DNA of 63,176 bases from Pseudonocardiaceae bacterium (GCA_039583705.1 JAVKSM010000002.1:1-63176), one strand, 5' to 3'. Positions 6,580 to 27,537 are shown, counted from the first letter of the stretch. Numbers and translations: made by a program. The notes: generated from the sequence alone by a model not told the origin.

Positions 6580-7980
6580 ATGGCCGGTGGCAGCGGCGGC
6601 AACGCGGCGGACCTGTTGGTGATCTTCGGCATCACTGGGGATCTGGCCCGCAAGATGACGTTCCGCTCACTGTACCGGCTGGAGCGTCGCAAGCTTCTCG
6701 ACTGTCCGGTCTTGGGCGTGGCCGTTGACGACCTGTCCGTCGACCAGTTGGCCGAGCATGCCCGCAAGGCGATCGGCGACTCTGGTGAGAAGGTCGAGGA
6801 CGAGGTCTTCGACCGCTTGGCACGGCGGTTGGCCTACGTACCGGGTGATGTCATGGACGACGCGCTCTACCGCCGGCTCGCCGAGCGGATCGGTCGTCGT
6901 CACCGGCCGCTGTACTACCTGGAGATGCCCCCGTCGCTGTTCGGCCCGATCGTCGGACACCTCGGCGACGCCGGACTTGTCGAGCACGCACGCGTCGCCG
7001 TCGAGAAGCCGTTCGGACATGACCTCAGCTCGGCGCGCGAGCTGGACACCCGGTTGCACAACGTGCTGCGGGAGGACCAGATCCTGCGCGTGGACCACTT
7101 CCTGGGCAAGGAACCCGTCATCGAGCTGGAATACCTGCGGTTCGCCAACCTGGCGCTCGCGGAGGTGTGGGACCGCAAGAGCGTGTCCTGCGTCCAGATC
7201 ACGATGGCCGAAGACTTCGGCGTCGAGGATCGCGGCGGGTTCTACGATGCGGTCGGTGCGTTGCGTGACGTCGTCCAGAACCACCTGCTGCAGGTGCTCG
7301 GACTGGTCGCGATGGAGCCACCGGCCGGCGCCGGCGCCGATGAGCTGCGGGACAAGAAGGCCGAGGTGTTCCGGGCGATGCCAGCGGCCGACCCGCGGCA
7401 CTGCGTGCGGGGCCAGTACGACGGTTACACCGACGTGCCCGGGGTCGCGAACTCCTCGACCACCGAGACGTTCGTCGCGCTGCGCCTGGAAATCGACAAC
7501 TGGCGCTGGGCCGGAGTCCCGATCTTCCTGCGGGCCGGCAAGGCGCTGCCGGAACGGGTCACCGAGATCCGGCTGTTCCTGCGCCGGACGCCACGGCTGG
7601 CCTTCCTGCCCACACCGACACAGGTCGAACCCAACCAGATCGTGCTGCGGATCGACCCCGACCCGGGCCTGCGGTTGCAGATAGCCGCGAAGTCCGCTGA
7701 CTCGTGGCGGACCGTGCACCTGGACACCTCGTTCACCCAGGAACTCGGCGAACCCTTGGAACCGTACGAGCGGCTCCTGTATAGCGGGCTCATCGGCGAC
7801 CACCAACTCTTCGCCCGTGAGGACAGCGTCGAGGAAACCTGGCGCATCGTACAGCCGCTGCTCGACCACCCGTCGGAGATCCAGCCGTATCAGCGCGGAT
7901 CGTGGGGGCCGAGCGCGGCGGAGTCACTGGTCCGGGGCCATCACCGCTGGCAGCGCCCCTGGCTGGGCGACCGACGTTGA
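6580..7980 (+). CDS. zwf: glucose-6-phosphate 1-dehydrogenase
   Basis: 'VIFGITGDLARKM' dinucleotide motif, 'EKPFGHDL' and the 'RVDHFLGKE' active-site signature. An AAGGAGG RBS lies 7 nt upstream of the ATG. Confidence 0.95.
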   Translation: MAGGSGGNAADLLVIFGITGDLARKMTFRSLYRLERRKLLDCPVLGVAVDDLSVDQLAEHARKAIGDSGEKVEDEVFDRLARRLAYVPGDVMDDALYRRLAERIGRRHRPLYYLEMPPSLFGPIVGHLGDAGLVEHARVAVEKPFGHDLSSARELDTRLHNVLREDQILRVDHFLGKEPVIELEYLRFANLALAEVWDRKSVSCVQITMAEDFGVEDRGGFYDAVGALRDVVQNHLLQVLGLVAMEPPAGAGADELRDKKAEVFRAMPAADPRHCVRGQYDGYTDVPGVANSSTTETFVALRLEIDNWRWAGVPIFLRAGKALPERVTEIRLFLRRTPRLAFLPTPTQVEPNQIVLRIDPDPGLRLQIAAKSADSWRTVHLDTSFTQELGEPLEPYERLLYSGLIGDHQLFAREDSVEETWRIVQPLLDHPSEIQPYQRGSWGPSAAESLVRGHHRWQRPWLGDRR

Positions 7981-8010
7981 CGCGACCGACATGGACATGG
8001 AGGGACGGAG

Positions 8011-8499
8011 ATGGAGTTCGACGTCGTGGTCGAGATCCCCAAGGGGCACCGCAACAAGTACGAGGTGGATCACGAGACCGGCCGGATCCGGTTGGACCGC
8101 ACGTTGTTCACCGCGACGTCCTACCCGGCCGATTACGGCTTCATCGAGGACACCCTCGGTCAGGACGGCGACCCATTGGACGCGATCGTGCTGGTGGACG
8201 AGCCCACCTTCCCCGGCTGCGTCATCCGGTGTCGCCCGATCGGCATGCTGTGCATGGTCGACGAACACGGCCAGGACGACAAGGTGCTGTGCGTCCCGGC
8301 CGGCGATACGCGCAAGGAGCATCTGCGCGACGTGTTTGACGTCGCCGAGTTCGACCGACTGGAAATCCAGCACTTCTTCGAGGTCTACAAGGCCCTCGAA
8401 CCGGGCAAGGGCGTCAAGGGCGGCACGGCGTGGGTGGGCCGTGGGCAGGCGGAGGCGGAGATCGAGGACGCCCGCCGCCGTCTCGCCGAGCACCCGTGA
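8011..8499 (+). CDS. ppa: inorganic pyrophosphatase (family I)
   Basis: '[14 protein letters not shown]', '[12 protein letters not shown]' and '[10 protein letters not shown]' signatures. 162 aa. Confidence 0.95.
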
Positions 8500-8503: not shown

Positions 8504-9202
8504 TCAGCGGAACCGCGCCGCCTTCATCTGGGCCTCACTCGCGAGCTTGTGCACCCGCTCGTCGTGGCCGATCTGGCGGAACACGTCCGCGAGCGAGGCG
8601 AAGTGGCCGAAGTCGTCAGCGAATGTGGACTCGAAAGAAGTGTGCTCCCAGTCGGGATGCTCGGCGACCACGGTCATGTACTCGTGCTCGGCGTGGTCCT
8701 CGAAGTCCGCATTGAGACGGTACGACCAGCGGGGGCGCACCACGAAGAGCAACCATGACAACTGATAATAAACGAACGCGATCGTCTGCGGCAGCCAGAA
8801 GAACTTGATCCGTGGCTGCGGCTGACCAGACCGGGCGATCAGCTCTTCGATGACGAACAAGTGGTACATCTCGTTGTCCTGCTGCGCGCGGGACTCGGCG
8901 ACCCGGTCGTGTATGCGGCGCGCCATGTCGGTGCGCGAGTGTACGTGGGTGATCGCGATGAAGGCGATCTGCTCCCACGCCTGGTAGGGAACCCGGGCGA
9001 CCAGTTCGAGGACCTTGAACTTGCTCAGCGTGCGAGGCTTGCCGTATACCACGTCAAGCAGGGCGAACAGGATCCGGGCGGCGATCCCGTACCGTCGGCG
9101 GGGCGACTGCAGGGTCTGGGTCTGTGCCCGCCGGAGCTCGTCGTGCGTCAGTCGCTGCGGCTGCCCGGGCAGGGCCGCGCTCGTCGTCTCCCCCACGGTC
9201 AT
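8504..9202 (-). CDS. alternative-oxidase-like di-iron carboxylate protein (AOX/PTOX family)
   Basis: Four helix motifs in AOX order: 'LELVARVPY', 'DNEMYHL' (ExxH), 'FEDHAEHEY' and 'HDERVHK' (ExxH). Confidence 0.7.
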   Translation of the reverse strand: MTVGETTSAALPGQPQRLTHDELRRAQTQTLQSPRRRYGIAARILFALLDVVYGKPRTLSKFKVLELVARVPYQAWEQIAFIAITHVHSRTDMARRIHDRVAESRAQQDNEMYHLFVIEELIARSGQPQPRIKFFWLPQTIAFVYYQLSWLLFVVRPRWSYRLNADFEDHAEHEYMTVVAEHPDWEHTSFESTFADDFGHFASLADVFRQIGHDERVHKLASEAQMKAARFR

Positions 9203-9465
9203 GTCCGCGGTCCTTCCACCTCGCCCTGACCCTGATGGCCCGATGGTAGTCAGCGGATCCGCGGCTGACGTACCCGGTCACCCACGCCGACCTCGCCCCG
9301 GCACCGGCCCGGCGCTCCCCCGCCGCGTCGGCTCGCCACCCGCCTCGTAGACTGCACTCACGGCGATGGGACTCGCCGAAACCGCGGGCCACCCGGACCG
9401 CTGATGGTCTCTACCGCACAACCAGCCGGACGGCTGGACGACGGTAGAGGAGGACCCCGGGACCC

Positions 9466-10419
9466 ATGTTGCCCGTCTCCTTCGTGCAGGCGCTGCAGGT
9501 ACTCACCGTGCTCGTCGCGGCGCCGGGCATCAACGGCGTGGTCTCCCGGGTCCAGGCCCGGCTGCAGGGCCGGCGTGGGACGCGCCTGCTACAGCCCTAC
9601 TACGACATCGGCAAGTGGTTCCGCAAGGAGGCGCTGGCCCCGGTCGGCGCGAGCTGGGTGTTCCTCGCGGCGCCGCTGGTCGCGATGACCTGCTATCTCA
9701 CGGTGCCGCTGCTCATTCCGGTGCTGACGACGTTCCCGCTGCCCCTGGCGTACCTGGGTGACATCCTCGGCGGCGGGTTCATCCTGGCCCTGGCCAGCTT
9801 CGTCGTCGCGGTCGCCGCCGCCGGCACCGGTTCCCCTTACGCGCAGCTCGGGGCCAGCCGGGCCAAGACGTTCAGCGCGATCACCGAGCCGGTGGTGCTG
9901 TTCGTCGTGTTCACGGTCGCGATCGTGACCGGCACCGACCTGCCCTACGCGCTGGCCAGGACGGTGCGCGCATCCGCCGACCAGATCGTCCGCCCGGCCC
10001 ACCTGCTCGCCGCGGCCGCGCTGTTCCTCGTCATCCTCTACGAGACCGGCCGGATCCCGGTGGAAACCCACACCGGCAGCAACGAGTTCGGGATGATCGA
10101 GGAGGCCCGTCCGTTCGAGCACTCCGGCCCCTACCTGGCGCTGCTGCGCTGGGGCTCGGCGATGAAGCAGCTCATCCTTTTCGTGATCTTCATCAACGTC
10201 TTCGTCGCGCCGTGGGGGCTGGCCTCGGACGCCAGCGTGCTCGCCGTGGGGCTGGCGATCCTGGCCCTGGTCGGCAAGTCCGCGCTGCTCGGCGTCGGCA
10301 TCGCGGTGATCGACGACTCGTTCGCGAAGCTCCGCCTCTTCAAGATCACAGAGTTCGTGGCGGCAGCGTTCATGCTCGCCGTGCTCGCGGTGTTCACGCT
10401 CTACTTCGGAGGAGGCTGA
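9466..10419 (+). CDS. HyfC/HycD/NuoH-like membrane subunit
   Basis: The N-terminus 'GINGVVSRVQARLQGRRGTRLLQPYYDIGKWFRKE' is typical of HycD/NuoH. About 8 TM segments. First gene of a tightly packed operon. Confidence 0.85.
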   Translation: MLPVSFVQALQVLTVLVAAPGINGVVSRVQARLQGRRGTRLLQPYYDIGKWFRKEALAPVGASWVFLAAPLVAMTCYLTVPLLIPVLTTFPLPLAYLGDILGGGFILALASFVVAVAAAGTGSPYAQLGASRAKTFSAITEPVVLFVVFTVAIVTGTDLPYALARTVRASADQIVRPAHLLAAAALFLVILYETGRIPVETHTGSNEFGMIEEARPFEHSGPYLALLRWGSAMKQLILFVIFINVFVAPWGLASDASVLAVGLAILALVGKSALLGVGIAVIDDSFAKLRLFKITEFVAAAFMLAVLAVFTLYFGGG

Positions 10420-11106
10420 ATGGGCCATCTCGCGCAGGGCATCGCCGAGCCCCCCGGCAGCTACGCCGGACTGACCACCGTGCTGGCCGTGCTCATGCTG
10501 GTCATCGAGTTCGGCATGCTACAGGCCACATTGCTGCGCGCCCAGGTCAGGCTGTATGCCGCCCAGTCGGTGGTGATCTCCGTCCTGGCGGTGGTGGTGG
10601 CTGCCACCCGCCACGTGCCGGGGTTGTACGGGTTGGCGGCGTTCTCGGTGGCGCTCAAGGTGGTCGCCGTGCCGCTGGTCATGCTGCGGCTGCTGCGTCG
10701 CACCAACCAGGAGATCGCCGGCAGCCGGGCGCTCGGCGTGGCGAGCATGGTGCTGCTCGCGGTGGCGGTCGCCGCCTTCGGGTTCTTCGCCAGCGCCCGG
10801 TTCCGCCTGGCCAGCCCGGTGCTGCCGGCCACCGCGCTGGCGGTGGCCGTGGCGATCGTCCTGGTGTCGTTCGTCCTCATGATCATGCGAAGGGACGTCG
10901 TCTCCCAGGCGGTCGGGTTCTTCGTTCTGGAGAACGGTGTCTCGCTGGCGAGCCTGGTCGTGGCCGCCAGCCTGCCGCTGATCCTCGAGGTCGCGTTCCT
11001 GTTCGACCTGCTGGTGGCCGTCGTGGTGTTCGGCGTGCTGATCCGCCTGCACCACCTCCGGTCCGAGACGCTGTCCACGTCGCAGCTCACCGAGTTGCGG
11101 GGGTGA
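10420..11106 (+). CDS. HyfE/HycP-like small membrane subunit (NuoK-related)
   Basis: 228-aa polytopic protein. The ATG immediately follows the upstream stop. Position and size match HyfE-type subunits. Confidence 0.7.
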   Translation: MGHLAQGIAEPPGSYAGLTTVLAVLMLVIEFGMLQATLLRAQVRLYAAQSVVISVLAVVVAATRHVPGLYGLAAFSVALKVVAVPLVMLRLLRRTNQEIAGSRALGVASMVLLAVAVAAFGFFASARFRLASPVLPATALAVAVAIVLVSFVLMIMRRDVVSQAVGFFVLENGVSLASLVVAASLPLILEVAFLFDLLVAVVVFGVLIRLHHLRSETLSTSQLTELRG

Positions 11107-11111
11107 CGCCG

Positions 11112-12584
11112 ATGACCGTCGTCCTCGTGCTGCTCGCGCTGCTCCCGCTGGTGGCCGCGGCCCTCTCGCTGGTTCCGGGACGGGCGGTGGCGCCCGCGGT
11201 CAGCGTCGGGGTTGGCCTCGCCTGCCTCGGCCTCGCCCTCACGCTGGTTCCCGCGGCGGCGCGGGGCCCGGTCGGGATCGGGTTCCTGCGGGTCGACGCG
11301 ATCTCGGTGGTCTTCCTCCTCGGCACGGCTTTCCTCTACGCCGCCACCGCCGTCTACTCCGTCGGCTACCTGCGCGGTGAGCGGGAGCGGGAGGGTTGGG
11401 TGCGTTACTCCCGGTGGTTCTGGACCGGGCTCGACCTGTTCGCCTGGGCCATGCTGTGTGCCCCGCTGATGGACGGCCTGGCGCTGCTGTGGATCGCCGT
11501 GGAGATCACCACCGTGGTCTCCGCACTGCTCGTCGCCCTGGACGGCACCCGGCGCAGCGCCGAGGCGGCGTGGAAGTACGTGCTCATCGCGTCGTCTGGG
11601 CTGGGCATCGCCCTGCTCGCCACGATCGTCATGTACCACGCGGGCGCCTCGGTGCTCGGGGCGTCCTACGACCTGTCCTTCCCGCCCCTTCTCAGCGCCG
11701 GGTCGGCCCTGCCACATCCCGCGGTGGAGTTGGCGTTCGTACTCGCGGTGGTCGGGTTCGGCACCAAGGTCGGGCTGTTCCCGGTGCACACCTGGCTGCC
11801 CGACGCGCACTCCGAGGCGCCGACCCCGGTCTCCGCGCTGCTGTCCGGCTCGCTGCTCGCGGTGAGCTTCTACGCCGTGCTGCGTTACTACCAGGTCGCG
11901 GTCGCCACGCTGGGCGGCAGCTTCCCCCGGGTCGTGCTGCTCGTCTTCGGCATGCTCTCGCTGCTGCTCGCCGCGGTGTACCTGGTCGAGCAGCGCAACC
12001 TCAAGCGGCTGCTGGCCTACTCCAGTGTCGAGCACATGGGCATCCTGGCGATCGGGGTGTCGTTCGGCGCGCCGCTCGCCTTCGCCGGGGTGCTGCTGCA
12101 CGTGCTGTCCCACGCCGCGGCCAAGGGCAACGCGTTCTTCGGTGCCGGCGTGCTGGTACGGGCTTGCGGCAGCAAACAGATCGGACGGATCCGAGGTGGC
12201 TTCGACCGGCTGCCCTGGACCGCGCCGCTGTTCCTCTTCACGATCCTCGCGCTGTCCGCGATGCCGCCCTTCGGACTGTTCCGCAGCGAGTTCCAGATCG
12301 TCGCCGGTGGCCTGGGCTCGGCCCACGACGCTCCGGCGGCGGCCATGGTCGCCTTGGTCACGCTGGCCTTCCTCGGATTGTCACTGGCCACCACGCGGAT
12401 GCTGTTCCTCCCCGGCGCGGATTCGCCGGGAGCCGCGGCTGCGCCGCGGGGCGAGCCGAGCGCGTGGATGGTGGCGCCGATGCTCGTCGGGATCCTCGCG
12501 CTGCTGGTGCTGGGCTTGCACCCGCCGGACGCGCTCACCGACCTCCTCACCCGTGGTGCCGCCGAGCTGGGAGGGGCGCGGTGA
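11112..12584 (+). CDS. HyfF/HycQ-like antiporter-type subunit (NuoM/N family)
   Basis: 'FPVHTWLPDAHSEAPTPVSALLSG' and 'KRLLAYSSVEHMG' are NuoL/M/N-family motifs. Start ATG 11112 lies within a longer shadow ORF. Confidence 0.85.
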   Translation: MTVVLVLLALLPLVAAALSLVPGRAVAPAVSVGVGLACLGLALTLVPAAARGPVGIGFLRVDAISVVFLLGTAFLYAATAVYSVGYLRGEREREGWVRYSRWFWTGLDLFAWAMLCAPLMDGLALLWIAVEITTVVSALLVALDGTRRSAEAAWKYVLIASSGLGIALLATIVMYHAGASVLGASYDLSFPPLLSAGSALPHPAVELAFVLAVVGFGTKVGLFPVHTWLPDAHSEAPTPVSALLSGSLLAVSFYAVLRYYQVAVATLGGSFPRVVLLVFGMLSLLLAAVYLVEQRNLKRLLAYSSVEHMGILAIGVSFGAPLAFAGVLLHVLSHAAAKGNAFFGAGVLVRACGSKQIGRIRGGFDRLPWTAPLFLFTILALSAMPPFGLFRSEFQIVAGGLGSAHDAPAAAMVALVTLAFLGLSLATTRMLFLPGADSPGAAAAPRGEPSAWMVAPMLVGILALLVLGLHPPDALTDLLTRGAAELGGAR

Positions 12585-14086
12585 GCCTGTCGACGGCGCA
12601 GCGCCCGGCCCGGGACGCGGTCGGGGCACTGCAGGCCAACCTGTGCGCCCGGCTCGCCGAGGGCCAGCGGTTCGCCGGACTGCTCGGGCGCGGTGATCCC
12701 GCCTCCGGGACCGTGCTCACCGCGCTCGTGGCACACGGCGGCGAGCTCACCCCGCTGCGCGCCGCCCTGCCTGCCGGGGTCACCCGGTACCCCGCCCTGA
12801 CGCCGAGCGTCCCGGCGGCGTTCTGGTACGAGCGGGCGATCCACGACCTGGTCGGCCTGGTGCCCGAGGGGCACCCTCGGCTGGACCCGCTCGTGCTGCC
12901 GCACCGCGACGACGAAGGCCCGCTGCCCCACCCGGGCGCTGCCGGTCAGCCCGCGCGGATCGACCCCGACGAGCGGGCGCTCTCGACGCACGTGTCCGGC
13001 CCGGGCGTGTTCACCATCCCGCACGGCCCGGTGCGCTCGGGGGTGTTCGAGTCCGTCGAGTACCTGGTGGAGACCGCGGGTGAGGACATCCTCCACCTGC
13101 GGATCCGCCCGCACGCCAAGCACCGCGGGGTGCAGAAGCGGTTCGAGGGCATGACCGTGCAGGACGGGGTGCTGCTGGCGGAACGGGTCGAGGGGATCGC
13201 CTCGGTGGCCCACGCGCTGGCCTTCGCGCACGCCGTCGAGACCATCGCGGACGTGGCTGTGCCGCCCGCCGCCGAGCTGCTGCGGGTGCTGCACGCCGAG
13301 TTGGAGCGGGTCGCCAACCACCTCGACGTCCTCGCCAAGCTCACCGACGCCGCCGGGCTGGCCGTGGCCACCGCGCGGTTCACGCTGCACAAGGAACGCG
13401 CCCTGCGGTTCGCCGGTGCGCTGTGCGGCAGCCGGTTCGGGCGCGGCGTCGTCGTGCCCGGTGGCGTGAGCGCGGCCCCCCGGCTGTCCGGCGACGACAT
13501 CGGTGCCGGGCTGGAGCGGTTGCGGCGCGCGGTCGACGGCGACGTGCGCGCGCTGCTGGGCACCTCGTCGTTCCTTGACCGCGTCCGCGGCACCGGGCCG
13601 CTCGCTGTCGAGCTCGCCCGCAGCCACGGCGCGCTCGGCCCGGTAGGCCGCGCCTCCGGGTGCGTCGAGGACTGCCGGGTCACGCGTCCCTACGACGGCT
13701 ACCGCCAGCTCGCGGCGCCACCGGTCCCGGCCCGCGAGGCGGGCGACGCGCAGGCCCGGACGCAGGTCCGCATCGAGGAGATCGGGGCGTCGTTCCGCCT
13801 CACCCACCAGGCGCTCGCCCGGCTGCCCACCTGCGACGAGGCCCGCCTGCAGGTCGCGGTGCCAGCGGTGGCGGGGCAGGCGCTCGGCTGGGCGGAGGCA
13901 CCGCAGGGCGAGGTGCTCTACCTGCTACAGGTCGACGGCGAGGGTCGGATCCGCTACTGCGCGCCGCGGTCGGCGTCCTTCCACAACCTGGTGCTGTTCC
14001 CGTCGACGTTCGTCGGTGACATCCTCACCGACTTCCCCTTCATCGAGGCCAGTTTCGGGCTGTCCGTCGCGGGGGTGGTGATGTAG
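12581..14086 (+). CDS. HycE/NuoCD-like 'large subunit' lacking all four Ni-Fe cysteine ligands
   Basis: It has a NuoC-like part ('AAFWYERAIHDLVGLVPEGHPRLDPL') and a NuoD/HycE-like part. The N-terminal ligand motif reads 'AERVEGIASVAH' instead of RxCGxCxxxH. The C-terminus reads 'FIEASFGLSVAGVVM' instead of DPCxxCxx(H/R). GTGA start/stop overlap with the upstream gene. Confidence 0.85.
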   Translation: MSLSTAQRPARDAVGALQANLCARLAEGQRFAGLLGRGDPASGTVLTALVAHGGELTPLRAALPAGVTRYPALTPSVPAAFWYERAIHDLVGLVPEGHPRLDPLVLPHRDDEGPLPHPGAAGQPARIDPDERALSTHVSGPGVFTIPHGPVRSGVFESVEYLVETAGEDILHLRIRPHAKHRGVQKRFEGMTVQDGVLLAERVEGIASVAHALAFAHAVETIADVAVPPAAELLRVLHAELERVANHLDVLAKLTDAAGLAVATARFTLHKERALRFAGALCGSRFGRGVVVPGGVSAAPRLSGDDIGAGLERLRRAVDGDVRALLGTSSFLDRVRGTGPLAVELARSHGALGPVGRASGCVEDCRVTRPYDGYRQLAAPPVPAREAGDAQARTQVRIEEIGASFRLTHQALARLPTCDEARLQVAVPAVAGQALGWAEAPQGEVLYLLQVDGEGRIRYCAPRSASFHNLVLFPSTFVGDILTDFPFIEASFGLSVAGVVM

Positions 14087-14938
14087 ATGCCGGAGACCAG
14101 CTCGCCGGAGACCGAGCCGCGGGAGGCCAGCTTGCCGGAGGCCAGGTCGCTGTGGGCCGGGTTGCCGTGGGCGCTGCGGGGGCTGCGCGAGGGGGTGGTC
14201 ACGACCCGCTACCCCCGCCGGCCGGACCCCTACGCCGAGACCTTCCCGGCCGCGGTGGCGCCGCTCGCGGATGCGCCCGTCGAGTCGGTCCGGGATGGGT
14301 CCTTCTGCCCGACCGGCGCGATCCGGGGCGGCGACGGCGCGATCCGGGTGGACACCGGGCGCTGCATCCTCTGTGGCCGGTGCGTGCGGGAGCGGCCGGA
14401 CCTCTTTGGCTGGGTTCCCGGCAGCGCGACGGCGCGGCTGCACCGGCAGGCGCTGGTCGTCCCCCAGCTCCCGGAGACCGACGAGGCCGTCGAGCGGGTC
14501 CGCGCAGCGCTGGCGGCCCGCACCCGGATGCTGCGCCGGTCCGTGCACATCAGACACGTCGACGCCGGCTCGGACGGCTCGGAGGAGTGGGAGGTGCTCG
14601 CCCTGCTCAACCCGGTCTACGACGTGCACCGCCTCGGGATCTTCTTCACCGCCAGCCCCCGGCACGCCGACGTCCTGCTCGTCACGGGGGCGGGCTCGCA
14701 CGGCATGGCCGAGCCATTGGGTCGGACGATCGAGGCCATCCCGCGGCCGTACCTCGTCGTCGCTGCCGGAACCGATGCGGTCAGTGGTGGCCTCCTCGCC
14801 CCGGGCTACGCGGTCGCCGGCGGCATCGGCGAGCACCTCGACGTCGACGTGTGGGTGCCAGGCTCGCCGCCGTCCCCATTCAGCTTGCTGCACGCGCTGC
14901 TGCTCGCTGTCGGACGGATCAGACCAGGAGGCCGGTAG
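14087..14938 (+). CDS. fused NuoI/HycF-like ferredoxin remnant + NuoB/HycG-like 'small subunit' lacking the proximal-cluster cysteines
   Basis: The N-terminal half keeps only 'CPTGAI' plus 'CILCGRCVRERP'. The C-terminal half aligns to NuoB/HycG, but its motifs read 'HVDAGSDGSEEWEV', 'AAGTDAVSGG' and 'VPGSPPSP'. All four Cys positions are substituted. Confidence 0.8.
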   Translation: MPETSSPETEPREASLPEARSLWAGLPWALRGLREGVVTTRYPRRPDPYAETFPAAVAPLADAPVESVRDGSFCPTGAIRGGDGAIRVDTGRCILCGRCVRERPDLFGWVPGSATARLHRQALVVPQLPETDEAVERVRAALAARTRMLRRSVHIRHVDAGSDGSEEWEVLALLNPVYDVHRLGIFFTASPRHADVLLVTGAGSHGMAEPLGRTIEAIPRPYLVVAAGTDAVSGGLLAPGYAVAGGIGEHLDVDVWVPGSPPSPFSLLHALLLAVGRIRPGGR

Positions 14939-16972
14939 ATGCCCGCGTCGCTGCTCGCCGCGTCCCTGCTGGGGCTGGCCGCCGCCGGGCTGCTCGACCT
15001 GGTGGCCGGCGTTCGCAGCGCCGTGCTCCGCCCGGTGCCCTACCTCGTGGCCGCAGCCGCGTCGGTGCTGCTGGTCGTCGTCGGGGCCGCGGGCGTCGCC
15101 GGCGGCCGCCCCCGGCTCGGGCTGGGCTCCGCCCTCGGATCGGGGCTGCTCGGCTTCGGCGCCACCGGCCTGTCCGTCGACCCGCTCTCCGGGCTCTTCC
15201 TGCTGATCAGCTTCGGGGTGGCTGTCCCGGTGTGCCTGGTGTGCGCCGGTTGGGCCGCCCGACCGGGCCGGGTCCGGTACCGGGGACTGGCCGCGGAGCA
15301 CTGCCTGGTGCTCGCCTCGGTCGCCGTGATCACCACCGCGGACGACGTCTTCCTGTTCCTGCTGGCGTGGGAGCTGCTCACGGTTGCCTTCTACCTACTG
15401 GTCGGCTTCGAGCGGTCCAAGGCCGGCCGGGCCGACGCGGCGGTCACCACGCTCGCCCTGAGCAAGGTGAGCGGTGCGGCGCTGCTGCTCGGCTTCCTGT
15501 TGCTCGCCACCCGCGCCGGGGGTTTCACCTTCGCAGACCTCACCGCTCTGCCCAGGTCGGGGCTGCGGGACGCGGCGTTCGCACTGCTCGTCGGCGGGTT
15601 CGCGGTCAAGGTGGGGCTGGTGCCACTGCACGTCTGGATGCCCCGCGGTTACCGGGCCGCCCCCGGGCCGCTGCGAGCGGTGATGGCCGGGGTCGCGGTC
15701 AACGTCGGCTTCTACGGGATGTGGCGCACCCCGCAACTGCTGCAGGTGCCGCCGGGGTGGCTCGCGGTGGCGGTGCTGCTGCTCGGCGGCTTCACCGCCC
15801 TGCTGGGGATCGCCCACGCCACGGTGCAGACCGACCTGGCCGAGAGCGTCGCCTACTCCAGCGTCGAGAACGGCGGCCTGATCGCCGTCGGGTACGGCAT
15901 CGCCCTCGTGGGGGCGGCCACCGGCCGCCCGGCGCTGCTCGCCGTCGGGCTGCTCGCGGCCACCCTGCAGGCCGTGGCGCACGCCCTGGCGAAGTCGCTG
16001 CTGTTCTGCGCCACCTCCGGGATCGAGGACGCCACCGGCACCACCGAGCTGGAGGCGCTCCGCGGCGTCGGACACCGCCTGCCGGTCAGCGGGACCGGCC
16101 TGGCCTTCGGTGCGCTCACCCTCGCGGGGCTGCCGCTGACCGCGGGGTTCGTCTCGGAGTGGTTCCTGCTCGAGGCGCTCATGCAGCAGTTCCGGGTGGG
16201 TCGGCTGGTCTACGCGCTGCCGATGGCGCTCGCCGGTGCCCTGGTCGCGGTCACCGCCGGGTTCGCAGCGGTCGCCTTCGTGCGGATCGTGGGTCTCGTC
16301 GTGCTCGGGCCCCGCAGCCCGGGCGAGGCGCGCCGTACCCGGGACATCGGTGGGCTGGGCGGCAGTGGCCTGGCGCTGCTCGGGTTCGGCTGCCTGGGAC
16401 TCGCGGCGGTCGCTCCGCTCTGGATCCGCGTGCTGGCCGCCGGGCTCGACCCGGTGGTCAGGCGGGAGGTGACGGTCAGGTCGCTGAAGTCGCAGTGGGT
16501 GCTGCAGCCGGTCTATGCGGAGTTCTCGGCCCTCTCACCGTCCTGGCTCGCCGTCGCGATGCCCGTCCTGCTGCTCGGCGTGATCGCACTGTGCGTCGTC
16601 CTCGGTCGCGGGCGGATGTTCGCTGTCCGCCGGGTGCCGGCCTGGCGCTCGGCGACCGGCGGGGTGGCCGGGGAGAACCAGTACACCCCTTTCGGGTTCG
16701 CCAACCCCACTCGCAAGGTGCTGGCGAACCTGCTGCTCACCCGCTCCGAGCTCAGGGTTTTGGAGCGGGAGAGCGGCTCCCCGGCCCACCTCGGCTACAC
16801 CGCCGACGTGGTCGAAGTCGTCGAGCGGTTCCTGTTCCGCCCACTCGGCCGGCCGCTGCTCGCCCTCGTCCGCGCCGCGAAGCGGTTGCAGAGCGGCCGG
16901 CTGGATGCCTACCTCGGCTACCTGCTGCTGGCCGTGCTGGCCGTGCTCGCGGTCGTCGCCGGACTGGCCTGA
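14939..16972 (+). CDS. HyfB/NuoL-like antiporter-type subunit
   Basis: 677 aa. Carries 'VPLHVWMPRGYRAAPGPLRAVMAG' and 'AYSSVENGG' NuoL/M/N motifs. The ATG directly follows the upstream TAG. Confidence 0.85.
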   Translation: MPASLLAASLLGLAAAGLLDLVAGVRSAVLRPVPYLVAAAASVLLVVVGAAGVAGGRPRLGLGSALGSGLLGFGATGLSVDPLSGLFLLISFGVAVPVCLVCAGWAARPGRVRYRGLAAEHCLVLASVAVITTADDVFLFLLAWELLTVAFYLLVGFERSKAGRADAAVTTLALSKVSGAALLLGFLLLATRAGGFTFADLTALPRSGLRDAAFALLVGGFAVKVGLVPLHVWMPRGYRAAPGPLRAVMAGVAVNVGFYGMWRTPQLLQVPPGWLAVAVLLLGGFTALLGIAHATVQTDLAESVAYSSVENGGLIAVGYGIALVGAATGRPALLAVGLLAATLQAVAHALAKSLLFCATSGIEDATGTTELEALRGVGHRLPVSGTGLAFGALTLAGLPLTAGFVSEWFLLEALMQQFRVGRLVYALPMALAGALVAVTAGFAAVAFVRIVGLVVLGPRSPGEARRTRDIGGLGGSGLALLGFGCLGLAAVAPLWIRVLAAGLDPVVRREVTVRSLKSQWVLQPVYAEFSALSPSWLAVAMPVLLLGVIALCVVLGRGRMFAVRRVPAWRSATGGVAGENQYTPFGFANPTRKVLANLLLTRSELRVLERESGSPAHLGYTADVVEVVERFLFRPLGRPLLALVRAAKRLQSGRLDAYLGYLLLAVLAVLAVVAGLA

Positions 16973-17942: not shown

Positions 17943-19655
17943 TCAAGGGGACCTACTGTGAGGGTTTGCACGGTACCCACCAGGGGTCCGGGGTGATGCG
18001 GTTAGTTTGGTGGTGCGGGCCGTTTCGCGGCGGACGCGGAGGGCGGTGAGGAGCAGTCCGGCGGCGAGTGCCGCGCCGACCCCTTCACCGGCTCGGATGC
18101 GAAGGTCGAGCAGCGGTTCGCAGCCGAGCGCTTCGAGGACGAGGGGGTGGGCGGCTTCACGGCTGCGTTGTCCGGCGATGAGGCAGTGTTGGGCGGCGGG
18201 TTCGAGGAGGATGGCGGTCAGAGCGGCGACAGACACGGCGAGTCCATCGAGGACGACGGGCGTGCGCGCAGCGGCGGCGCCGAGCGTCACGCCGGCGAGA
18301 ACAGCGAGTTCTGGGCCGCCGGCCGCGGCGAGAGCGGCGAGCGGGTCGATGGGGCGGGTCGTTGCGCGGCGAGTGCGGGCGAGTGCGCCGGTGATCACTT
18401 CCCGCTTGCGCTGGAGGATGGCGGAGTCGGCGCCGGCGCCGAGCCCGACGACGGCGTCGGCGTCGAGGTCGAGAAGCAGCGCGGCGAGGGTTGCGGCGAC
18501 CGTGGTGTTGCCGATGCCGATTTCTCCGAGCGCGACAAGACCGGTGCCGCCGCTGGCGCTGCCGAGGACGCGTCCGAGCTTGAGGAGAGCGGTGACGTCG
18601 CCGGCGGTCATGGCGGGGCTGGTCAGAAGGTCGCCCCGCGGCCCGGTCGGGCGTGCCGCGACGGCACCGGGCACGGGTTCGTTGACGCCGGCGTCGACGA
18701 CGAGAACGTCGAGGCCCGCTGCTCGCGCCGCGCGCGCGCCGAGTGCGGAGTCGGCGACCGCGGCGCGGGTGACGTCGGCGGTGACGTGCGAGGAGTAGGC
18801 GGATACCCCGTGGACTGTGACCGGATGGTCAGCGGCGGCGATGACGAGCACACCGCCGGGGCAGTCGCGGTGCCCGAGCGCGATGACACGGTCGACGGCC
18901 CGGTCGAGCACGCCGAGGGATCCAAGTGCGGTGAGCAACGTATCGGCGTCGTCGCGGACGGCGACGACATCGGCGGGGGTGGGGGCGCGCAGCCGCGACG
19001 ACGGCGCGGCCGGTGCCTGTGCGTTGGGCCATCGGTCGGTGAGGACGACGTCGTGGAGGGGGAGCCGGCGCGACCAGCCGGCACGTTGCAGGCCGGGCTC
19101 GGGTGGGCGTTCGTCCGGCCAGCCCAGGCAGAGCCAGCCGAGAGTCACGACGCCGTCGGGGAGCCCGAGCAGCGCGGCGAGATCCTCGGGGCGAAACAGC
19201 GTGACCCAGCCGACGCCAAGACCTTCTGCTCGCGCGGCCAGCCACAAGTTCTGTATCGCTGTGGCGCAGCTCCACAGGTCGGCGCCGGGAAACGTCGCGC
19301 GGCCGAGGACGCCGGTGGCGGGGGCGCGGCGGTCGCAGAGCACGACGACGCCCAGCGGCGCTTCGCGGACCCCTTCCAGCTGAAGATCGAGCAGGCGCCG
19401 GGCGGCGTCGGGTTCGAGCAGCGACGCCTGACGAAGCCGTTCACGGTCGGTGAGAACCGCCGCCTCGTCGCGGATCGCTGGGTCGCGGACGACGACGAAC
19501 CGCCAGGGCTGGCTGTGTCCGACTGAGGGCGCGGCGTGCGCCGCCCGGAGCACCCGCTCGAGCATGTCGTCAGGGACGGGATCCGGGCGGTAACGGCGAA
19601 TGTCGCGGCGGGCGTAGATAACCGCGTGCAGGGCGTCGCGGACCTCGATCGGCAT
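17943..19655 (-). CDS. bluB-cobT: BluB (5,6-dimethylbenzimidazole synthase) fused to CobT (nicotinate-nucleotide:DMB phosphoribosyltransferase)
   Basis: The N-terminal nitroreductase-fold part has 'AVIYARRDIRRYRPDPVPDDMLERVLRAAHAAPSVGHSQPWRFVVV'. The C-terminal part has 'GEIGIGNTTVAATLAALLL' and 'RIRAGEGVGAALA', as in CobT. The start could also be ATG 19736. Confidence 0.85.
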   Translation of the reverse strand: MPIEVRDALHAVIYARRDIRRYRPDPVPDDMLERVLRAAHAAPSVGHSQPWRFVVVRDPAIRDEAAVLTDRERLRQASLLEPDAARRLLDLQLEGVREAPLGVVVLCDRRAPATGVLGRATFPGADLWSCATAIQNLWLAARAEGLGVGWVTLFRPEDLAALLGLPDGVVTLGWLCLGWPDERPPEPGLQRAGWSRRLPLHDVVLTDRWPNAQAPAAPSSRLRAPTPADVVAVRDDADTLLTALGSLGVLDRAVDRVIALGHRDCPGGVLVIAAADHPVTVHGVSAYSSHVTADVTRAAVADSALGARAARAAGLDVLVVDAGVNEPVPGAVAARPTGPRGDLLTSPAMTAGDVTALLKLGRVLGSASGGTGLVALGEIGIGNTTVAATLAALLLDLDADAVVGLGAGADSAILQRKREVITGALARTRRATTRPIDPLAALAAAGGPELAVLAGVTLGAAAARTPVVLDGLAVSVAALTAILLEPAAQHCLIAGQRSREAAHPLVLEALGCEPLLDLRIRAGEGVGAALAAGLLLTALRVRRETARTTKLTASPRTPGGYRANPHSRSP

Positions 19656-19894
19656 CGCCCACTCGCGCGGTCCCGCCGCCCGCTGGGCCGCCGATGTGCA
19701 GTCACCCACCAGCGACACCGGACGGGGCCAAACCATGCGCTCGCCGAGTTCGCCCACGCCATGCAGGATCTCACGTCGTGCGCAGTGGGTTCCCCGACGC
19801 CTGCTGCGGCTCGCGGTCGGGCGCGCTGCTGTATCGCGTCCACCTATGTCGCCGGCAGCCAGGCGCTCCCCGAGGACCGAGGAGCACCAGCCGC

Positions 19895-21439
19895 TCACGG
19901 GCGCAGCCGGCGCAGGGTGCGGTAGGTCGGTTCCAGGGCGTCGTAGAGGCTCGCGAAGACCGGCAGCAGTTCGGTGTAGACGGCCGCGGCCTCCGGGTCG
20001 GGCGTCAGGACGTCGTCCACCCGCACCAGGTCCGCGACGTGGTCCAAGCCGTCCACGAGACCCAGCGCCGCCATTCCCAGCAGCGCCGCTCCGAACCCGG
20101 AGCCTTCATAGCTGCGCGGGAACCCCACCGGTACGCCCAGCACGTCGGTGAGCATCTGACGCCAGAGCGGGCTGCGCGCGAACCCGCCGGTCGCCCGCAC
20201 CTCCCGCACGTCGTTTCCGGCCTCCCGCATGGACTCCGCCACCAGCGCCAACTGCTGGCACACCCCCTCCAACGCCGCCCGCACCAGGTGTTCCCGGCGA
20301 TGCTCCCGCCGCAGGCCCACGTAGGCGCCTCGCGGCAGGGCGCTCCAGTGCGGGGCCCGCTCGGAGAGCAGGTAGGGCAGCATGACCAGCCCGGCGCTGC
20401 CCGGTGGGGTCGTCGCGGCGAGCCGCAGCAGCGCGTCCACGTCGCCGCCGAGGTCGGGGGCGAGCGCGTCGCCCACCCAGTCCACGACCACGCCGCCGTT
20501 GTTCACCGCCCCTCCGATGACCCAGCGGCCCGCGGTGAGCGCGTAGCAGAACACCCGCCCGAGCGGGTCCACGCCCGGCCGCTCGACGGTCAGCCGGAGC
20601 GCCCCGCTGGTACCGATCGAGCACACCGCCACCCCTGGCCGGATCGCGCCGACACCGAGGTTGGCCAGCGGCCCGTCACCGGCACCGACGACAAGCGGTG
20701 TGCCTGCCGGCAGGCCGAGGGCATCCGCGCTCGGCGCGGTCAGCCCGGCCAGCACGTGCTCAGCGGGCACCAGCGGCGGCAACAGCTCGCGGTCGATGCC
20801 GGCGAGCCCCATCGCGACGCCGTCCCAGTCCAGGGTGGACATCGCGAGCAGCCCGGTCCCGGAGGCCAGCGAGTGGTCGGTGACGAGCCGCCCGGTCAGC
20901 CGGGACACCACGTACTCCTTGATGCCGCACCACGTCCGCGCGCTGGCGAAGGTCCGTGGCTCGGTCTCTCGCAGCCACACCAGCTTGGGCAACGGGGCCA
21001 TGGGGTGCAGCGGGGTGCCGGTGCGGCGGTGCAGCTCGAGACCGCCGGGCGCGGCGCGCAGCCGTTCGGCGACGGCGGCCGCCCTCGTGTCCGCCCAGGT
21101 GATCGACGGGGTGAGTGGGCTGCCCGCCGCGTCGAGGGCGAGCAGGCTGTGCATCGCGGAGCTGACCGACAGCCCGGCCACCGTCGCGCCGGCGGCCCGG
21201 ACCGCCGCCGCGGCCCGTCCGACGGTGGCGAGTACCGCCCGCAGGATCAGCTCCGGGTCCTGTACGGCGGCGCCGGGCTCCGGCTCGTCGAGCGGGTAGC
21301 CGACCTCGCCGAACGTCTGGGAGCGGCGGCCCACGTCCACGGCGACGACCTTGGTGGCGGTGGTTCCGATGTCGACGCCGAGCACGACCTCCTCACGCAC
21401 CGCGCGTGTCCTCACCGCCATGCCGTGATCCTCCCTCAA
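19895..21439 (-). CDS. FGGY-family carbohydrate kinase (gluconokinase-like)
   Basis: 'VLGVDIGTTATKVVAVD' N-terminal ATPase motif and a 'GGFARSPLWRQMLTDVLG' C-terminal FGGY motif. Confidence 0.85.
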   Translation of the reverse strand: MREDHGMAVRTRAVREEVVLGVDIGTTATKVVAVDVGRRSQTFGEVGYPLDEPEPGAAVQDPELILRAVLATVGRAAAAVRAAGATVAGLSVSSAMHSLLALDAAGSPLTPSITWADTRAAAVAERLRAAPGGLELHRRTGTPLHPMAPLPKLVWLRETEPRTFASARTWCGIKEYVVSRLTGRLVTDHSLASGTGLLAMSTLDWDGVAMGLAGIDRELLPPLVPAEHVLAGLTAPSADALGLPAGTPLVVGAGDGPLANLGVGAIRPGVAVCSIGTSGALRLTVERPGVDPLGRVFCYALTAGRWVIGGAVNNGGVVVDWVGDALAPDLGGDVDALLRLAATTPPGSAGLVMLPYLLSERAPHWSALPRGAYVGLRREHRREHLVRAALEGVCQQLALVAESMREAGNDVREVRATGGFARSPLWRQMLTDVLGVPVGFPRSYEGSGFGAALLGMAALGLVDGLDHVADLVRVDDVLTPDPEAAAVYTELLPVFASLYDALEPTYRTLRRLRP

Positions 21440-21527: not shown

Positions 21528-21623
21528 GGAGGCGTCAGGGCGCCTGGTGGCCCCCGCGGTCTTCAAAACCGACGTGGTCGAGTACCTCGGCCAGGCGGGT
21601 TCGATTCCCGTCCGCCTCCGCCA
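21528..21623 (+). tRNA. selC: tRNA-Sec (anticodon UCA)
   Basis: 96 nt: GGAGGCG...CGCCTCC-G-CCA acceptor, anticodon loop CUUCAAA (UCA), a long variable arm (GACGUGGUCGAGUACCUCGGCCAGG) and a GGTTCGATTCC T-loop. Adjacent to selD/selA/selB. Confidence 0.9.
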
Positions 21624-21864
21624 ACCCTCTCACCTGCAGCTTTGTCCCCGTCACGCGCTGCATCCTCGCCGAGGTCGGCGCCGCGCTGCCCGGATTGATC
21701 CGCGACATGCATACCCCGATCAACGCCGGGCGGGACGTGGGCGAGCTGCTGGACCTGGCGGTCCTGCTGCACAAAGGTCTCACGGCGGGGTGGCTGCGCC
21801 TTGCGGGCGCCCGGCAACCTGCCGCGGCGGGATGCTCGACCCGCTGGGCCGACTTGAGCGCCCA

Positions 21865-22893
21865 TCAGCGCAGGACGATCCGGCCGTCGCCGGCCCTGAC
21901 CCGGCCGACGACCGCGGCGGGCGGTCCGAGCTGCTCGACGGCGTGGGCCGCGGCCTGTGGGGCGGCGCCGAACAGCAGGCCACCGGAGGTCTGCGCGTCG
22001 GCGAGCAGCAGCACGGTGGTCTCGTCGGCGACACCCACGTCGAGCACGTCGCGCACGTGGTCGAGGTTGCGGTGGCTGCCCCCGGGCACCCGGTCGGCCT
22101 TGGCCAGCTCGACCACACCGGGCAGCAGCGGCACCGCGGCCACGTCCAACTCGACGTCGACGCCGGAGGCCTGCGCCATCCGTCCGAGGTGGCCGAGCAG
22201 CCCGAACCCGGTGACGTCGGTGGCGCCGGTGGCACCCGCCGCGAGCGCGGCCGCCGCGGCCGCGGCGTTGGGGGTGAGCATCGAGGCCACCGCGCCCGCC
22301 ACGACCTCTGGTGGCGCCACGCCGACCTTGATCGCGGTCGACGCCACCCCGGTGCCCAGCGCCTTGGTGAGCACCAGGGCGTCGCCGTCGCGCAGGCCGG
22401 TGTTGGTCAGCAGCCGGTCCGGGTGCACCTCCCCGACCACGGCCAGCCCGTACTTCGGCTCCGCGTCGTCGACGGTGTGCCCGCCCACGACTGCGAACCC
22501 GCACGCCGCCCCGGCCTCGGCGCCGCCGGCGAGCACCTCTGCGAGCAACGCGGTCGACAGCTCGGCGGCGTTCCACATGACGAGGTTGAGCGCAAACAGC
22601 GGTCGACCGCCCATCGCGTAGACGTCGGAGACGGAGTTCGTCGCGGCGATCCGGCCCCAGGTGCGGGCGTCGTCGACGATCGGGGTGATGAAGTCGGCGG
22701 TGGCGACCAGCGCGCGGGCGTCGTCCAGCCGCCACACCGCCGCGTCGTCACCGGTGTCGGTGCCGACCAGCAGGTCCGGCGCGGTGACCGGGCTCAGCGA
22801 GCGCAGGACCTGCGCCAGCTCGCCGGGGGCGAGCTTGCAGGCTCAACCCGCCCCGTGACTGAACTCGGTGAGCCGGCGCTGTTGTGAGGTCAC
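21865..22893 (-). CDS. selD: selenide, water dikinase (selenophosphate synthetase), itself a selenoprotein
   Basis: The track ORF (from 22737) lacks the N-terminus. Reading through the in-frame TGA at 22843-22845 gives 'VTSQQRRLTEFSHGAG-U-ACKLAPGELAQVLRSL...'. This is the canonical SelD G-x-G-(U/C)-x-C-K active-site loop. GTG start at 22893. Confidence 0.9.
22807..22842 (-). promoter_or_regulatory. candidate bacterial SECIS hairpin immediately 3' of the selD UGA
   Basis: The mRNA GCCUGC-A-AGCUCGC-CCCCG-GCGAGCU-GGC-GCAGGU can pair as a 6-bp lower stem plus a 7-8-bp upper stem. It starts at the first nucleotide after the UGA. Confidence 0.5.
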
Positions 22894-22940
22894 CAGCGAA
22901 CAGTAGCGGGCCAGCGAACAGTAGCGGGCCAGCGAGCGGG
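22893..22940. repeat. tandem 18-nt repeat (2 perfect copies + 1 shortened) in the selD/selA divergent intergenic region
   Basis: CCAGCGAACAGTAGCGGG at 22893-22910 and 22911-22928, then CCAGCGAGCGGG at 22929-22940. Confidence 0.9.
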
Positions 22941-22960
22941 CCTGCGGTTAGGCTCGGCAT

Positions 22961-26039: not shown

Positions 26040-26861
26040 CTAGCCGCTGTCGGTGAGCTCGCGCCGCAACTGGGAGAGGGTGCGGGCCAGCAGCCGGGAG
26101 ACGTGCATCTGCGACACCCCGACCCGGTCCGCGATCTGGGTCTGCGTCATGCCCCCGAAGAAGCGCAGCATGACGATCGTGCGCTCCCGCTGCGGGAGCT
26201 TCTGCAGCGCGGGCTGCAGCGTCTCCCGGTACTCCACCTGTTCGAGCTCCAGATCGGCCGCTCCGATGACGTCAGCGAGCCGGCCGCTGGAAGGGTCGTC
26301 GACGAGCATGTCGTCCAGCGAGGTACTGCGGTAGGCGTTGGCGGCTTCCAGCGCCTCGAGCACCTCGTCGCGGCTGCGCTGCAGGTGCTCGGCCAGCTCA
26401 CCTGGCGTCGGGGCCCGGCCCAGCCGCTGGGACAGCTCGGGCACGGCCGTGCCGATCGCCAGCCGGAGATCCTTGAGCCGGCGCGGGACGCGGGTGGCCC
26501 AGGCCTTGTCCCGGAAGTAGCGACGCACCTCCCCTGTGATGGTCGGCACAGCATAGGAGAGGAAGTCGCTGCCGCGGCCGGGCTCGAAGCGGTCGATGGC
26601 ATGGATCAGCCCCACCGTCGCGACCTGTTCGAGGTCCTCGACGGGCTCCCCGCGGTGGGCGAAGCGGCGGGCGATGTGTCGGGCGAGTGGGAGGTGCCCC
26701 TTGACCAACTGGTCCCGCAGCGTCTCACGGCGCGGGCCGTCGGCCCTGAGGCTGGCGAACTCGGCGAGCATCGGCGCCAGGTAGTCGTAGCCGGCGTCGG
26801 AGTCGGTCGAGGGCGACCGCTCGCTGCTCGGCTCGACGGTTCGTCCGCTGTGCTCGGTCAC
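26040..26861 (-). CDS. SigB/SigF-type group 3 RNA polymerase sigma factor
   Basis: Region 2 'VATVGLIHAIDRFEPGRGSDFLSYAVPTITGEVRRYFRD' and region 4 'QTQIADRVGVSQMHVSRLL'. GTG 26861 forms a GTGA overlap with the stop of the upstream anti-sigma gene. Confidence 0.85.
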   Translation of the reverse strand: MTEHSGRTVEPSSERSPSTDSDAGYDYLAPMLAEFASLRADGPRRETLRDQLVKGHLPLARHIARRFAHRGEPVEDLEQVATVGLIHAIDRFEPGRGSDFLSYAVPTITGEVRRYFRDKAWATRVPRRLKDLRLAIGTAVPELSQRLGRAPTPGELAEHLQRSRDEVLEALEAANAYRSTSLDDMLVDDPSSGRLADVIGAADLELEQVEYRETLQPALQKLPQRERTIVMLRFFGGMTQTQIADRVGVSQMHVSRLLARTLSQLRRELTDSG

Positions 26862-27268: not shown

Positions 27269-27347
27269 GGTCGTTGCTCTCCTACGTCAGTGCTCCTGCT
27301 TCCGGTGCCCGCGCTTGGTCGACAACGCTACTGCGGCCCGGCGCCGA

Positions 27348-27404
27348 TCGGACGGGGACGTCGAGGTTTGGCGACGACGCTCGGGCGGGGACGTCGAGGT
27401 TTGG
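27348..27404. repeat. two 24-nt direct repeats phased 33 bp apart
   Basis: TCGGACGGGGACGTCGAGGTTTGG (27348-27371) and TCGGGCGGGGACGTCGAGGTTTGG (27381-27404), with one mismatch. Located between two divergently transcribed anti-sigma genes. Confidence 0.9.
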
Positions 27405-27537
27405 ACCGCACCGCCCCCGGTCACCCCATTTCGACGCGCGCCGGATCCCTGGCGGGGAGGTCAGGGTGCTCGCATGTGGCACCACGACGGGCGGCTCGGT
27501 ACCAGCCGACCGCGAGCCGCGGGGAGGAGCTCGACTC

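Follow-up and report, generated by a model that had tools for sequence, protein, structure and literature searches.

What can a membrane complex do that is built like a formate hydrogenlyase and carries none of the metal ligands of a hydrogenase? This question is raised by a six-gene operon at positions 9466-16972 of a 63,176-nt stretch of DNA from a Pseudonocardiaceae bacterium (GCA_039583705.1, JAVKSM010000002.1:1-63176), the whole of which is called the window in the following. Our alignments show that the operon encodes a predicted complex of the energy-converting hydrogenase-related (Ehr) type, which belongs to an Actinomycetota-wide clade, and a conserved RNA motif in its leader predicts that it is controlled by a fluoride riboswitch. 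The riboswitch had escaped the preliminary description of this locus, and it gives the complex a physiological context.

Subunits and metal ligands of the complex

The six plus-strand genes are tightly packed, neighbours abutting or sharing 4 nt, and fill the interval 9466-16972 of a window with a G+C content of ~73%. Gene identities were taken from Pfam and NCBIfam profiles. Gene 1 (9466-10419, 317 residues) encodes a NuoH/HycD-like membrane subunit (Pfam NADHdh, 2.8e-29) with 66-91% identity across 64 orthologues and 47% of its positions conserved to at least 95%. Gene 2 (10420-11106, 228 residues) encodes a HyfE-like membrane subunit (NCBIfam PRK11492 'hydrogenase 4 membrane subunit', 1e-24, below cut-off) for which a PDB search returned no relative, and gene 3 (11103-12584, 493 residues), starting with a GTG that overlaps the stop codon of gene 2, a HyfF/NuoN-like antiporter-like subunit (Pfam Proton_antipo_M, 3e-49; best NCBIfam match HyfF, 8e-97). 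The HycE-like large subunit, made up of a NuoC fragment and a NuoD fold, is encoded by gene 4 (12581-14086, 501 residues; best PDB match HycE, 7z0s_E, 2e-41). Gene 5 (14087-14938, 283 residues) is a fusion of a NuoI/HycF-like and a NuoB/HycG-like part (PDB 7z0s_G, HycG, 3e-26; Fer4-type Pfam match at residues 86-143), and gene 6 (14939-16972, 677 residues) encodes a HyfB/HycC/NuoL-like antiporter-like subunit with a C-terminal extension (NCBIfam HyfB, 5e-111, full length; PDB 7z0s_C, HycC, 1e-31). The start of gene 5 is ambiguous: the ATG at 14087 abuts the stop codon of gene 4, and a TTG at 14162 would give a protein of 258 residues. Homologues begin at the position aligned to this TTG (residue 26 of the ATG-14087 reading) with the consensus MPWVLRGLR, and TTG 14162 may be used instead of ATG 14087. 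A structure model of gene 5 has a mean predicted local distance difference test score (pLDDT) of 62, with the NuoI-like domain poorly modelled; the top Foldseek matches of this low-confidence model, HycG, MbhJ and PSST, only re-confirm the predicted HycG/PSST fold. The six predicted proteins are divergent relatives, not orthologues, of the named NCBIfam families, since all six scores lie far below the curated equivalog cut-offs.

A genome scan with one genome per species returned 317 genomes with a relative of the operon, and our locus comparisons cover the closest 80. From a manual comparison, the preliminary description had claimed that all alignable catalytic cysteines are gone, with a shifted alignment or an assembly artefact as the possible errors. 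We fixed the register by phmmer alignment to solved structures, namely E. coli formate hydrogenlyase (FHL; 7Z0S), Mbh and complex I. In the large subunit (gene 4), the L1 motifs RVCGICGFAH of HycE and RMCGICSFSH of MbhL align without gaps to RVEGIASVAH, which lacks both cysteines of RxCGxCxxxH, and the substitutes E and A are kept in nearly all of 120 homologues. These homologues, with 58-77% identity, contain AERVEGIASVAH or a one-residue variant of it together with FxEASFGLSxAG. The C-terminus of the large subunit reads FIEASFGLSVAGVVM up to the stop codon, is conserved in the form of the latter motif and holds no DPCxxCxxH/R, while genuine four-cysteine relatives (P0234, P0254 and P0260) carry LCYSCLDR in the same alignment columns. 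At this end the HMMER alignment stops at 'FPFIEAS' / 'APLIIGS', and the following FGLSVAGVVM with its stop codon was placed by eye against the DPCxxC of HycE. The cysteines are likewise missing from the majority of the 150 nearest cluster representatives at the 50% identity level, a set that extends down to ~31% identity.

The small-subunit domain of gene 5 gives the same picture. Compared with HycG, DCGGCNGCE is changed to DAGSDGSEE, GACGNSGG to GTDAVSGG and PGCPPTP to PGSPPSP. All proximal-cluster cysteines aligned with HycG or MbhJ are substituted by A, D, E, D or S, and these substitutes are invariant in an alignment of 36 sequences (A4). The N2 cysteines of NuoB are absent from this domain. 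The NuoD-type quinone residues, which the preliminary description had left for checking, are missing from gene 4, where an ungapped alignment to 2fug_4 places F156 at His38 and G205 at Tyr87 of Thermus Nqo4. Searches with Pfam and NCBIfam detected no NuoA/J/K or NuoEFG homologues in the six-gene operon, and neither the 63-kb window nor the 15 most recurrent neighbour families of the 80 loci include hyp, endopeptidase, FdhF, HycB, CooS or NuoEFG-type genes. The claimed loss of the Ni-Fe site and of the N2/proximal cluster holds, and a shifted alignment is ruled out because the HycE, MbhL and HycG alignments place no cysteine at a metal position. Judged by these predicted ligands, neither a [NiFe] hydrogenase nor a quinone reductase of the complex I type is possible.

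The closest 80 genomes all belong to the Actinomycetota and include Pseudonocardiaceae, Amycolatopsis, Nocardia, Sciscionella, Streptomyces, Streptosporangiaceae, Trebonia, Acidothermus, Actinoallomurus and Actinocatenispora. Gene order is identical in all 80 loci, and the cysteine-less motifs recur in the homologues, which disposes of the assembly artefact. Among close relatives, the pairwise ratio of nonsynonymous to synonymous substitution rates (dN/dS) is 0.14-0.24 in each of the six genes, both 'degenerate' peripheral subunits included, indicating that all six genes are under purifying selection. The same six-gene order is found in an Acidimicrobiia locus with a large subunit of 49% identity and in a distant clade represented by locus L084 (44% identity); a further locus, L081, with 35% identity to gene 4 (~31-37% in its clade), has the gene order B-D-E-F-L. 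By definition, an Ehr large subunit is a group 4 homologue without the Ni-Fe CxxC motifs (PMC6349859, PMC10284858), which is what was found here, and its gene is accompanied by those of NuoB-, NuoH- and Mrp antiporter-like subunits in an order kept in the 80 loci. Since all four Ni-Fe cysteines and the proximal-cluster cysteines are substituted, and the substitutions are conserved and under selection, the complex is of the Ehr type, as had been proposed, and is neither a hydrogenase nor an artefact.

The losses are confined to particular sites. According to the alignments, three metal sites are missing from the peripheral arm (genes 4 and 5): the Ni-Fe site, the proximal [4Fe-4S] cluster and one NuoI cluster of two. 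One complete four-cysteine [4Fe-4S] set is invariant in the NuoI-like N-terminal domain of gene 5 (C74-P and C93xxC96xxC99), its four cysteines being 97-99% conserved in 71 orthologues. This domain can be aligned with 2x[4Fe-4S] ferredoxins and, weakly, with MbhN and HycF; compared with the ferredoxins, it has kept only the CP of motif 1 and the CxxCxxC of motif 2, and the complementary cysteine set is gone. The complex is thus not free of Fe-S clusters, one predicted [4Fe-4S] site being strictly conserved. Around the former active site of gene 4, residues H148, R152, R202, E204, H211 and E489 are invariant.

As the alignments show, the charged residues that carry ions in complex I, Mbh and Mrp are kept in the membrane arm (genes 1, 2, 3 and 6). 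Canonical glutamate of transmembrane helix (TM) 5, lysine of TM7, lysine of TM11 and glutamate of TM12 are invariant in both antiporter-like subunits (E134, K222, K341 and E396 in gene 3; E145, K224, K352 and E407 in gene 6), so that the suggestion that ion translocation has been retained in these two subunits stands: they look functional. Invariant residues are also found in the acidic TM5-6 loop of gene 1 (E193, R196, E200, E207, E213 and E218) and in gene 2 (E30, E171 and E190).

The fluoride riboswitch and its regulon

The fluoride riboswitch aptamer (crcB RNA motif, RF01734) lies at 9353-9420 on the plus strand, with 40.5 bits in Rfam cmscan at a gathering score of 34 (E=9e-8 for the whole window). 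The full model (positions 1-64) is matched and the conserved core, GGCGAUGG...UCGCC...AACCGC...GCUGAUG...CUAC, is intact. It is located on the coding strand and ends 46 nt upstream of the gene 1 ATG at 9466. Directly 5′ of the aptamer, the plus-strand hexamer TAGACT (9348-9353) is a possible −10 promoter element by its sequence; a consensus promoter scan of the leader gave no match. A putative expression platform at 9409-9454 (plus strand) appears as a hairpin in both the minimum free energy and the centroid folds. Here the aptamer 3′ strand CUCUACCG (9409-9416) is able to pair with CGGUAGAG (9442-9449), a segment that shares positions with the purine-rich Shine-Dalgarno sequence GAGGAGGA (9447-9454), and no intrinsic terminator was found in the leader. 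Helices that compete with the pseudoknot strand are common but variable among the loci, with a median of 6 nt in comparison to 3.8 nt in shuffled sequences and at least 8 nt in 23 of 63 loci. From this arrangement we infer a translational ON switch.

The association of the aptamer with the operon is conserved. Of 12 related loci scanned with Rfam, seven have a match above the gathering score ahead of gene 1, and more matches lie elsewhere in the flanks. We built a covariance model (R1) from 13 Rfam-validated copies and ran it over the window and the 80 loci, which returned 139 riboswitch copies; the riboswitches of the closest Pseudonocardiaceae relatives were detected by this model only. Among the loci with at least 250 nt of upstream sequence, 61 of 62 have a coding-strand copy within 400 nt of the gene 1 start, and the helix pairs of the aptamer covary across loci. 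Taken together, position, covariation and recurrence show an operon predicted to be under fluoride-riboswitch control. The Acidimicrobiia locus has a riboswitch upstream of gene 1 as well, with a score below Rfam gathering. In L084, the leader at 160-235 contains P1 and the pseudoknot strand and lacks the AACCGC linker; with 15 bits in model R1 and no Rfam match, it may be a variant fluoride aptamer. No riboswitch was found in L081.

The surroundings of the operon in other genomes resemble known fluoride regulons, in which the aptamer likewise lies in the 5′ untranslated region and the neighbours are crcB, DUF190, enolase, pyrophosphatase, MutS-like and USP genes. Recurrent neighbours in the 80 loci are DUF190 (23 loci), MutS-like (19), dynamin-like GTPase (17), CrcB (16), enolase (11) and USP (9) genes, and pyrophosphatase within 10 kb (~8). 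Those riboswitch copies that are not located at gene 1 precede MutS-like, tandem DUF190, NUDIX, enolase, pyrophosphatase, dynamin-like and CrcB genes. Such 'fluoride islands' were seen in L052, L018, L069, L060, L025 and others, with up to 8 copies in 21 kb (L052) and some divergent pairs. In the Acidimicrobiia locus, the operon is adjoined by a crcB-DUF190-crcB group with its own riboswitch.

Possible functions of the complex

On balance, we favour as the probable function of the complex a fluoride-induced ion-translocating module, probably non-redox, that supports pH and proton-motive-force homeostasis under hydrogen fluoride (HF) stress. Cytoplasmic fluoride would bind the aptamer, whose 3′ strand would then be held in the pseudoknot, so that the Shine-Dalgarno region would be freed and the six proteins made. 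The complex would work as an Mrp- or complex-I-like proton or cation/proton translocator, and translocation would offset the acidification and the loss of proton-motive force that result from HF influx and from electrogenic F− export via CrcB/Fluc. The remodelled peripheral arm would act as a coupling element, a gate or a structural cap. Among the classes of fluoride-riboswitch genes, Na+/H+ antiporters come second in frequency, and the control of pH has a central part in fluoride resistance (PMC11139923); a role in homeostasis fits the prominence of these antiporters in the riboswitch regulon. Ion translocation is probably not driven by redox chemistry, a mechanism without redox being favoured because the predicted proteins contain no chain that could pass electrons to a catalytic site and conserved input modules are lacking.

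Several points weigh against this proposal. Strong purifying selection on the arm, the invariant Fe-S site and the Glu/His/Arg pocket suggest that the arm is more than a cap, and Mrp antiporters function without any peripheral arm. Judged by the ligands of Thermus Nqo9, the retained cluster presumably corresponds to N6b, which adjoins N2. The window holds no crcB, and its pyrophosphatase gene is without a riboswitch, which some copies in other loci have. The expression platform is predicted only, and the competing helices vary between loci. The invariant Fe-S site and the pocket keep a redox-driven or ligand-gated mechanism alive.

In a redox-driven pump, the single [4Fe-4S] cluster would be reduced by a soluble donor, for example ferredoxin, F420H2 or a dehydrogenase encoded elsewhere, and reduction of an acceptor at or near the pocket would drive proton pumping and restore the proton-motive force under fluoride stress. 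The near-complete conservation of the four cluster cysteines and the invariant former active-site region are what such a pump would need, and MBS/Mbx provide a precedent, as they reportedly lost the Ni-Fe site and kept redox-driven ion pumping (PMC8165549). However, with the loss of the proximal cluster and of the second NuoI cluster, no relay leads to the pocket; an electron-input gene is conserved beside the operon in none of the 80 loci, and the quinone ligands are absent. We hold this explanation to be unlikely.

Two further explanations give fluoride itself a role in the complex. In the first, the complex would be a fluoride-stress energy converter, whose pocket beside the [4Fe-4S] cluster, formerly the place of Ni-Fe or quinone and now lined by invariant Glu, His and Arg, binds fluoride or a metal-fluoride and is coupled to translocation via the antiporter-like subunits; we regard this as improbable. 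If true, fluoride binding at the pocket would add a class of substrate not seen before in the complex I superfamily and would be the first function assigned to Ehr complexes. The second is a fluoride-specific machine, either for energy-coupled extrusion of F− or HF or with fluoride (Mg-F) bound at the Glu/His/Arg pocket and gating ion flow. It would account for the near-universal riboswitch association and for the invariant carboxylate, histidine and arginine residues of the old metal site (E204, H211, R152 and E489), and the operon co-occurs with CrcB and does not substitute for it. Nevertheless, the same loci already encode dedicated exporters (CrcB), the idea has no known precedent and no recognisable fluoride-binding motif, and as a speculation it is very doubtful.

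A genuine formate hydrogenlyase or [NiFe] hydrogenase that shifts metabolism to anaerobic formate oxidation is suggested by the database names 'formate hydrogenlyase subunit 5' and 'Ni,Fe-hydrogenase III large subunit' and by the reading of the riboswitch-associated genes in a review (PMC11139923), but we give it practically no chance: it is ruled out by the conserved loss of all four Ni-Fe and all proximal-cluster cysteines, and the missing FdhF, HycB and hyp genes in the window and among recurrent neighbours as well as the low NCBIfam scores also contradict it. A decaying remnant or assembly artefact without function, at which the loss of catalytic residues alone could hint, is of negligible probability and is ruled out by six intact frames, the order shared with 80 genomes, the low dN/dS, and the conserved substituted motifs and regulatory RNA.

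Surroundings in the window and related systems

Just upstream of the operon, the window encodes a glucose-6-phosphate dehydrogenase and an inorganic pyrophosphatase (6580-8499). Divergent from the riboswitch leader lies the gene of an alternative-oxidase-like di-iron protein (8504-9202, minus strand; Pfam AOX, 1e-10), which we rejected as a functional partner since it is not conserved beside the operon in the other 80 loci. A complete selenocysteine toolkit at 21528-26034 comprises tRNA-Sec (21528-21623, plus strand), a selD-like gene of the AIR synthase family (21865-22737, minus strand), selA (22961-24274, plus strand) and selB (24265-26034, plus strand). No selenoprotein gene such as that of a formate dehydrogenase was seen in the window; no sel gene recurs beside the operon in the 80 loci, and the location of the sel genes 4.5 kb downstream of the operon is therefore considered a coincidence.

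Further genes for ion transport are present. A separate Mrp-like cluster at 34786-38962 (plus strand) has the order MnhE, a gap, MnhG, MnhB/MbhE-like, NuoK-like (MnhC) and MnhD-like, which is that of the Mbh membrane module and not the usual mrpA-G; an MrpA-type N-terminal subunit was not seen in it. A NicO-family high-affinity nickel/cobalt transporter (40137-41276, plus strand) is encoded in the same window as this 'hydrogenase' that is unable to bind nickel, and a GDT1 divalent cation/proton antiporter follows at 41642-42229. A protein of 651 residues encoded at 17943-19898 (minus strand) fuses a nitroreductase (BluB-like) and a DBI_PRT (CobT-like) domain and presumably makes and activates the lower ligand of cobalamin. 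The gene of a sigma factor and a cluster of anti-sigma kinase-like (HATPase_c_2) and STAS anti-anti-sigma genes form a partner-switching module at 26040-29685. The region 55132-63176 is probably an integrated mobile element: it contains tRNA-His and tRNA-Lys followed by a phage-type integrase (55736-56809), and its G+C content falls to 0.60-0.64. The first 4 kb of the window are low in G+C as well (0.63-0.64).

Among characterized enzymes, FHL-1 of E. coli (7Z0S) provides the best relatives in the structural database with HycE, HycG, HycC and, weakly, HycF, and HyfB, HyfE and HyfF of Hyf/FHL-2 are the best NCBIfam matches; a NuoC-like N-terminal domain of the large subunit is shared with HycE. 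The preliminary description had equated the operon with the gene set of FHL-2-type hydrogenases. The six subunit types are confirmed, but they are only a subset of Hyf/FHL-2: in comparison to both formate hydrogenlyases, the operon has no FdhF, HycB/HyfA, HyfD, HycI protease or nearby hyp genes, and its proteins lack the Ni-Fe site and the proximal cluster and keep one of the two HycF clusters. Gene 6 keeps the TM7 lysine, whereas the aligned residue of HycC is leucine. With Mrp (CPA3) and Mbh/MBS, the complex shares two MrpA/D-type subunits with TM5 glutamate, TM7 lysine and a TM12 acidic residue, as well as the proposed role in pH and ion homeostasis. In contrast to Mrp, the operon is without MrpB/C/E/F/G and adds a NuoH-like subunit as well as a soluble arm of the NuoC/D/B/I-like kind. 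In its action the complex may resemble Mrp, though the full MrpA-G set is lacking and it is not an Mrp member.

The 'hyc' locus Rv0081-Rv0087 of Mycobacterium tuberculosis, a possible counterpart named as Rv0082-Rv0087 in the preliminary description, encodes a similar set of six proteins. Its order (small subunit, HyfB-like, D, P, Q, E) is a cyclic permutation of the order described here, and its regulation involves DosR and MprA; the locus is not known to have a riboswitch. It has been called an EHR complex, 'not a functional hydrogenase', and Rv0081 a transcriptional hub that regulates the hyc genes (PMC6728331). No Mycobacterium genomes were among the 80 closest loci.

Relatives of complex I of the Ehr type are widespread; they were first described in the 2000s, and their function has been open since. 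They form an established class without an assigned function (PMC6349859, PMC4758237, PMC10284858), still called unknown in 2023 (PMC10284858), and HydDB excludes them from the hydrogenases (PMC5037454). The complex described here agrees with this class in its group 4 large and small subunit homologues without Ni-Fe ligands and in its NuoH-like and antiporter-like membrane subunits. As far as Ehr complexes are portrayed in the papers citing the primary work, the present clade differs by its riboswitch control, the gene order D-E-F-L-(I+S)-B, the fusion of NuoI and NuoB, the loss of the proximal cluster and the single cluster that is kept.

In the fluoride literature, 'formate hydrogen lyase' genes have been listed downstream of the crcB RNA motif since 2010 (Weinberg, PMC2864571). 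These genes are named among those most commonly associated with fluoride riboswitches in PMC11139923, there citing Baker 2012, and the same 2024 review explains the association as real formate oxidation and an anaerobic shift. Unlike the true formate hydrogenlyase assumed there, the proteins described here are without every hydrogenase ligand. A literature search, which did not include the primary Ehr papers, found no paper that joins the Ehr class with the fluoride-riboswitch 'FHL' genes. Thus, the Ehr class and the association of crcB RNA with 'formate hydrogen lyase' are each already published, and their link is added here.

In conclusion, our findings correct the fluoride literature: in Actinomycetota, as represented by this locus and 80 relatives, these genes encode a cysteine-less complex of the Ehr type that is unable to produce hydrogen. 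Research on Ehr complexes gains a defined, predicted inducing condition and cultured carriers, among them Amycolatopsis, Nocardia, Streptomyces and Sciscionella. Ion movement without a redox chain by an Ehr-type complex thereby becomes testable, under fluoride stress.

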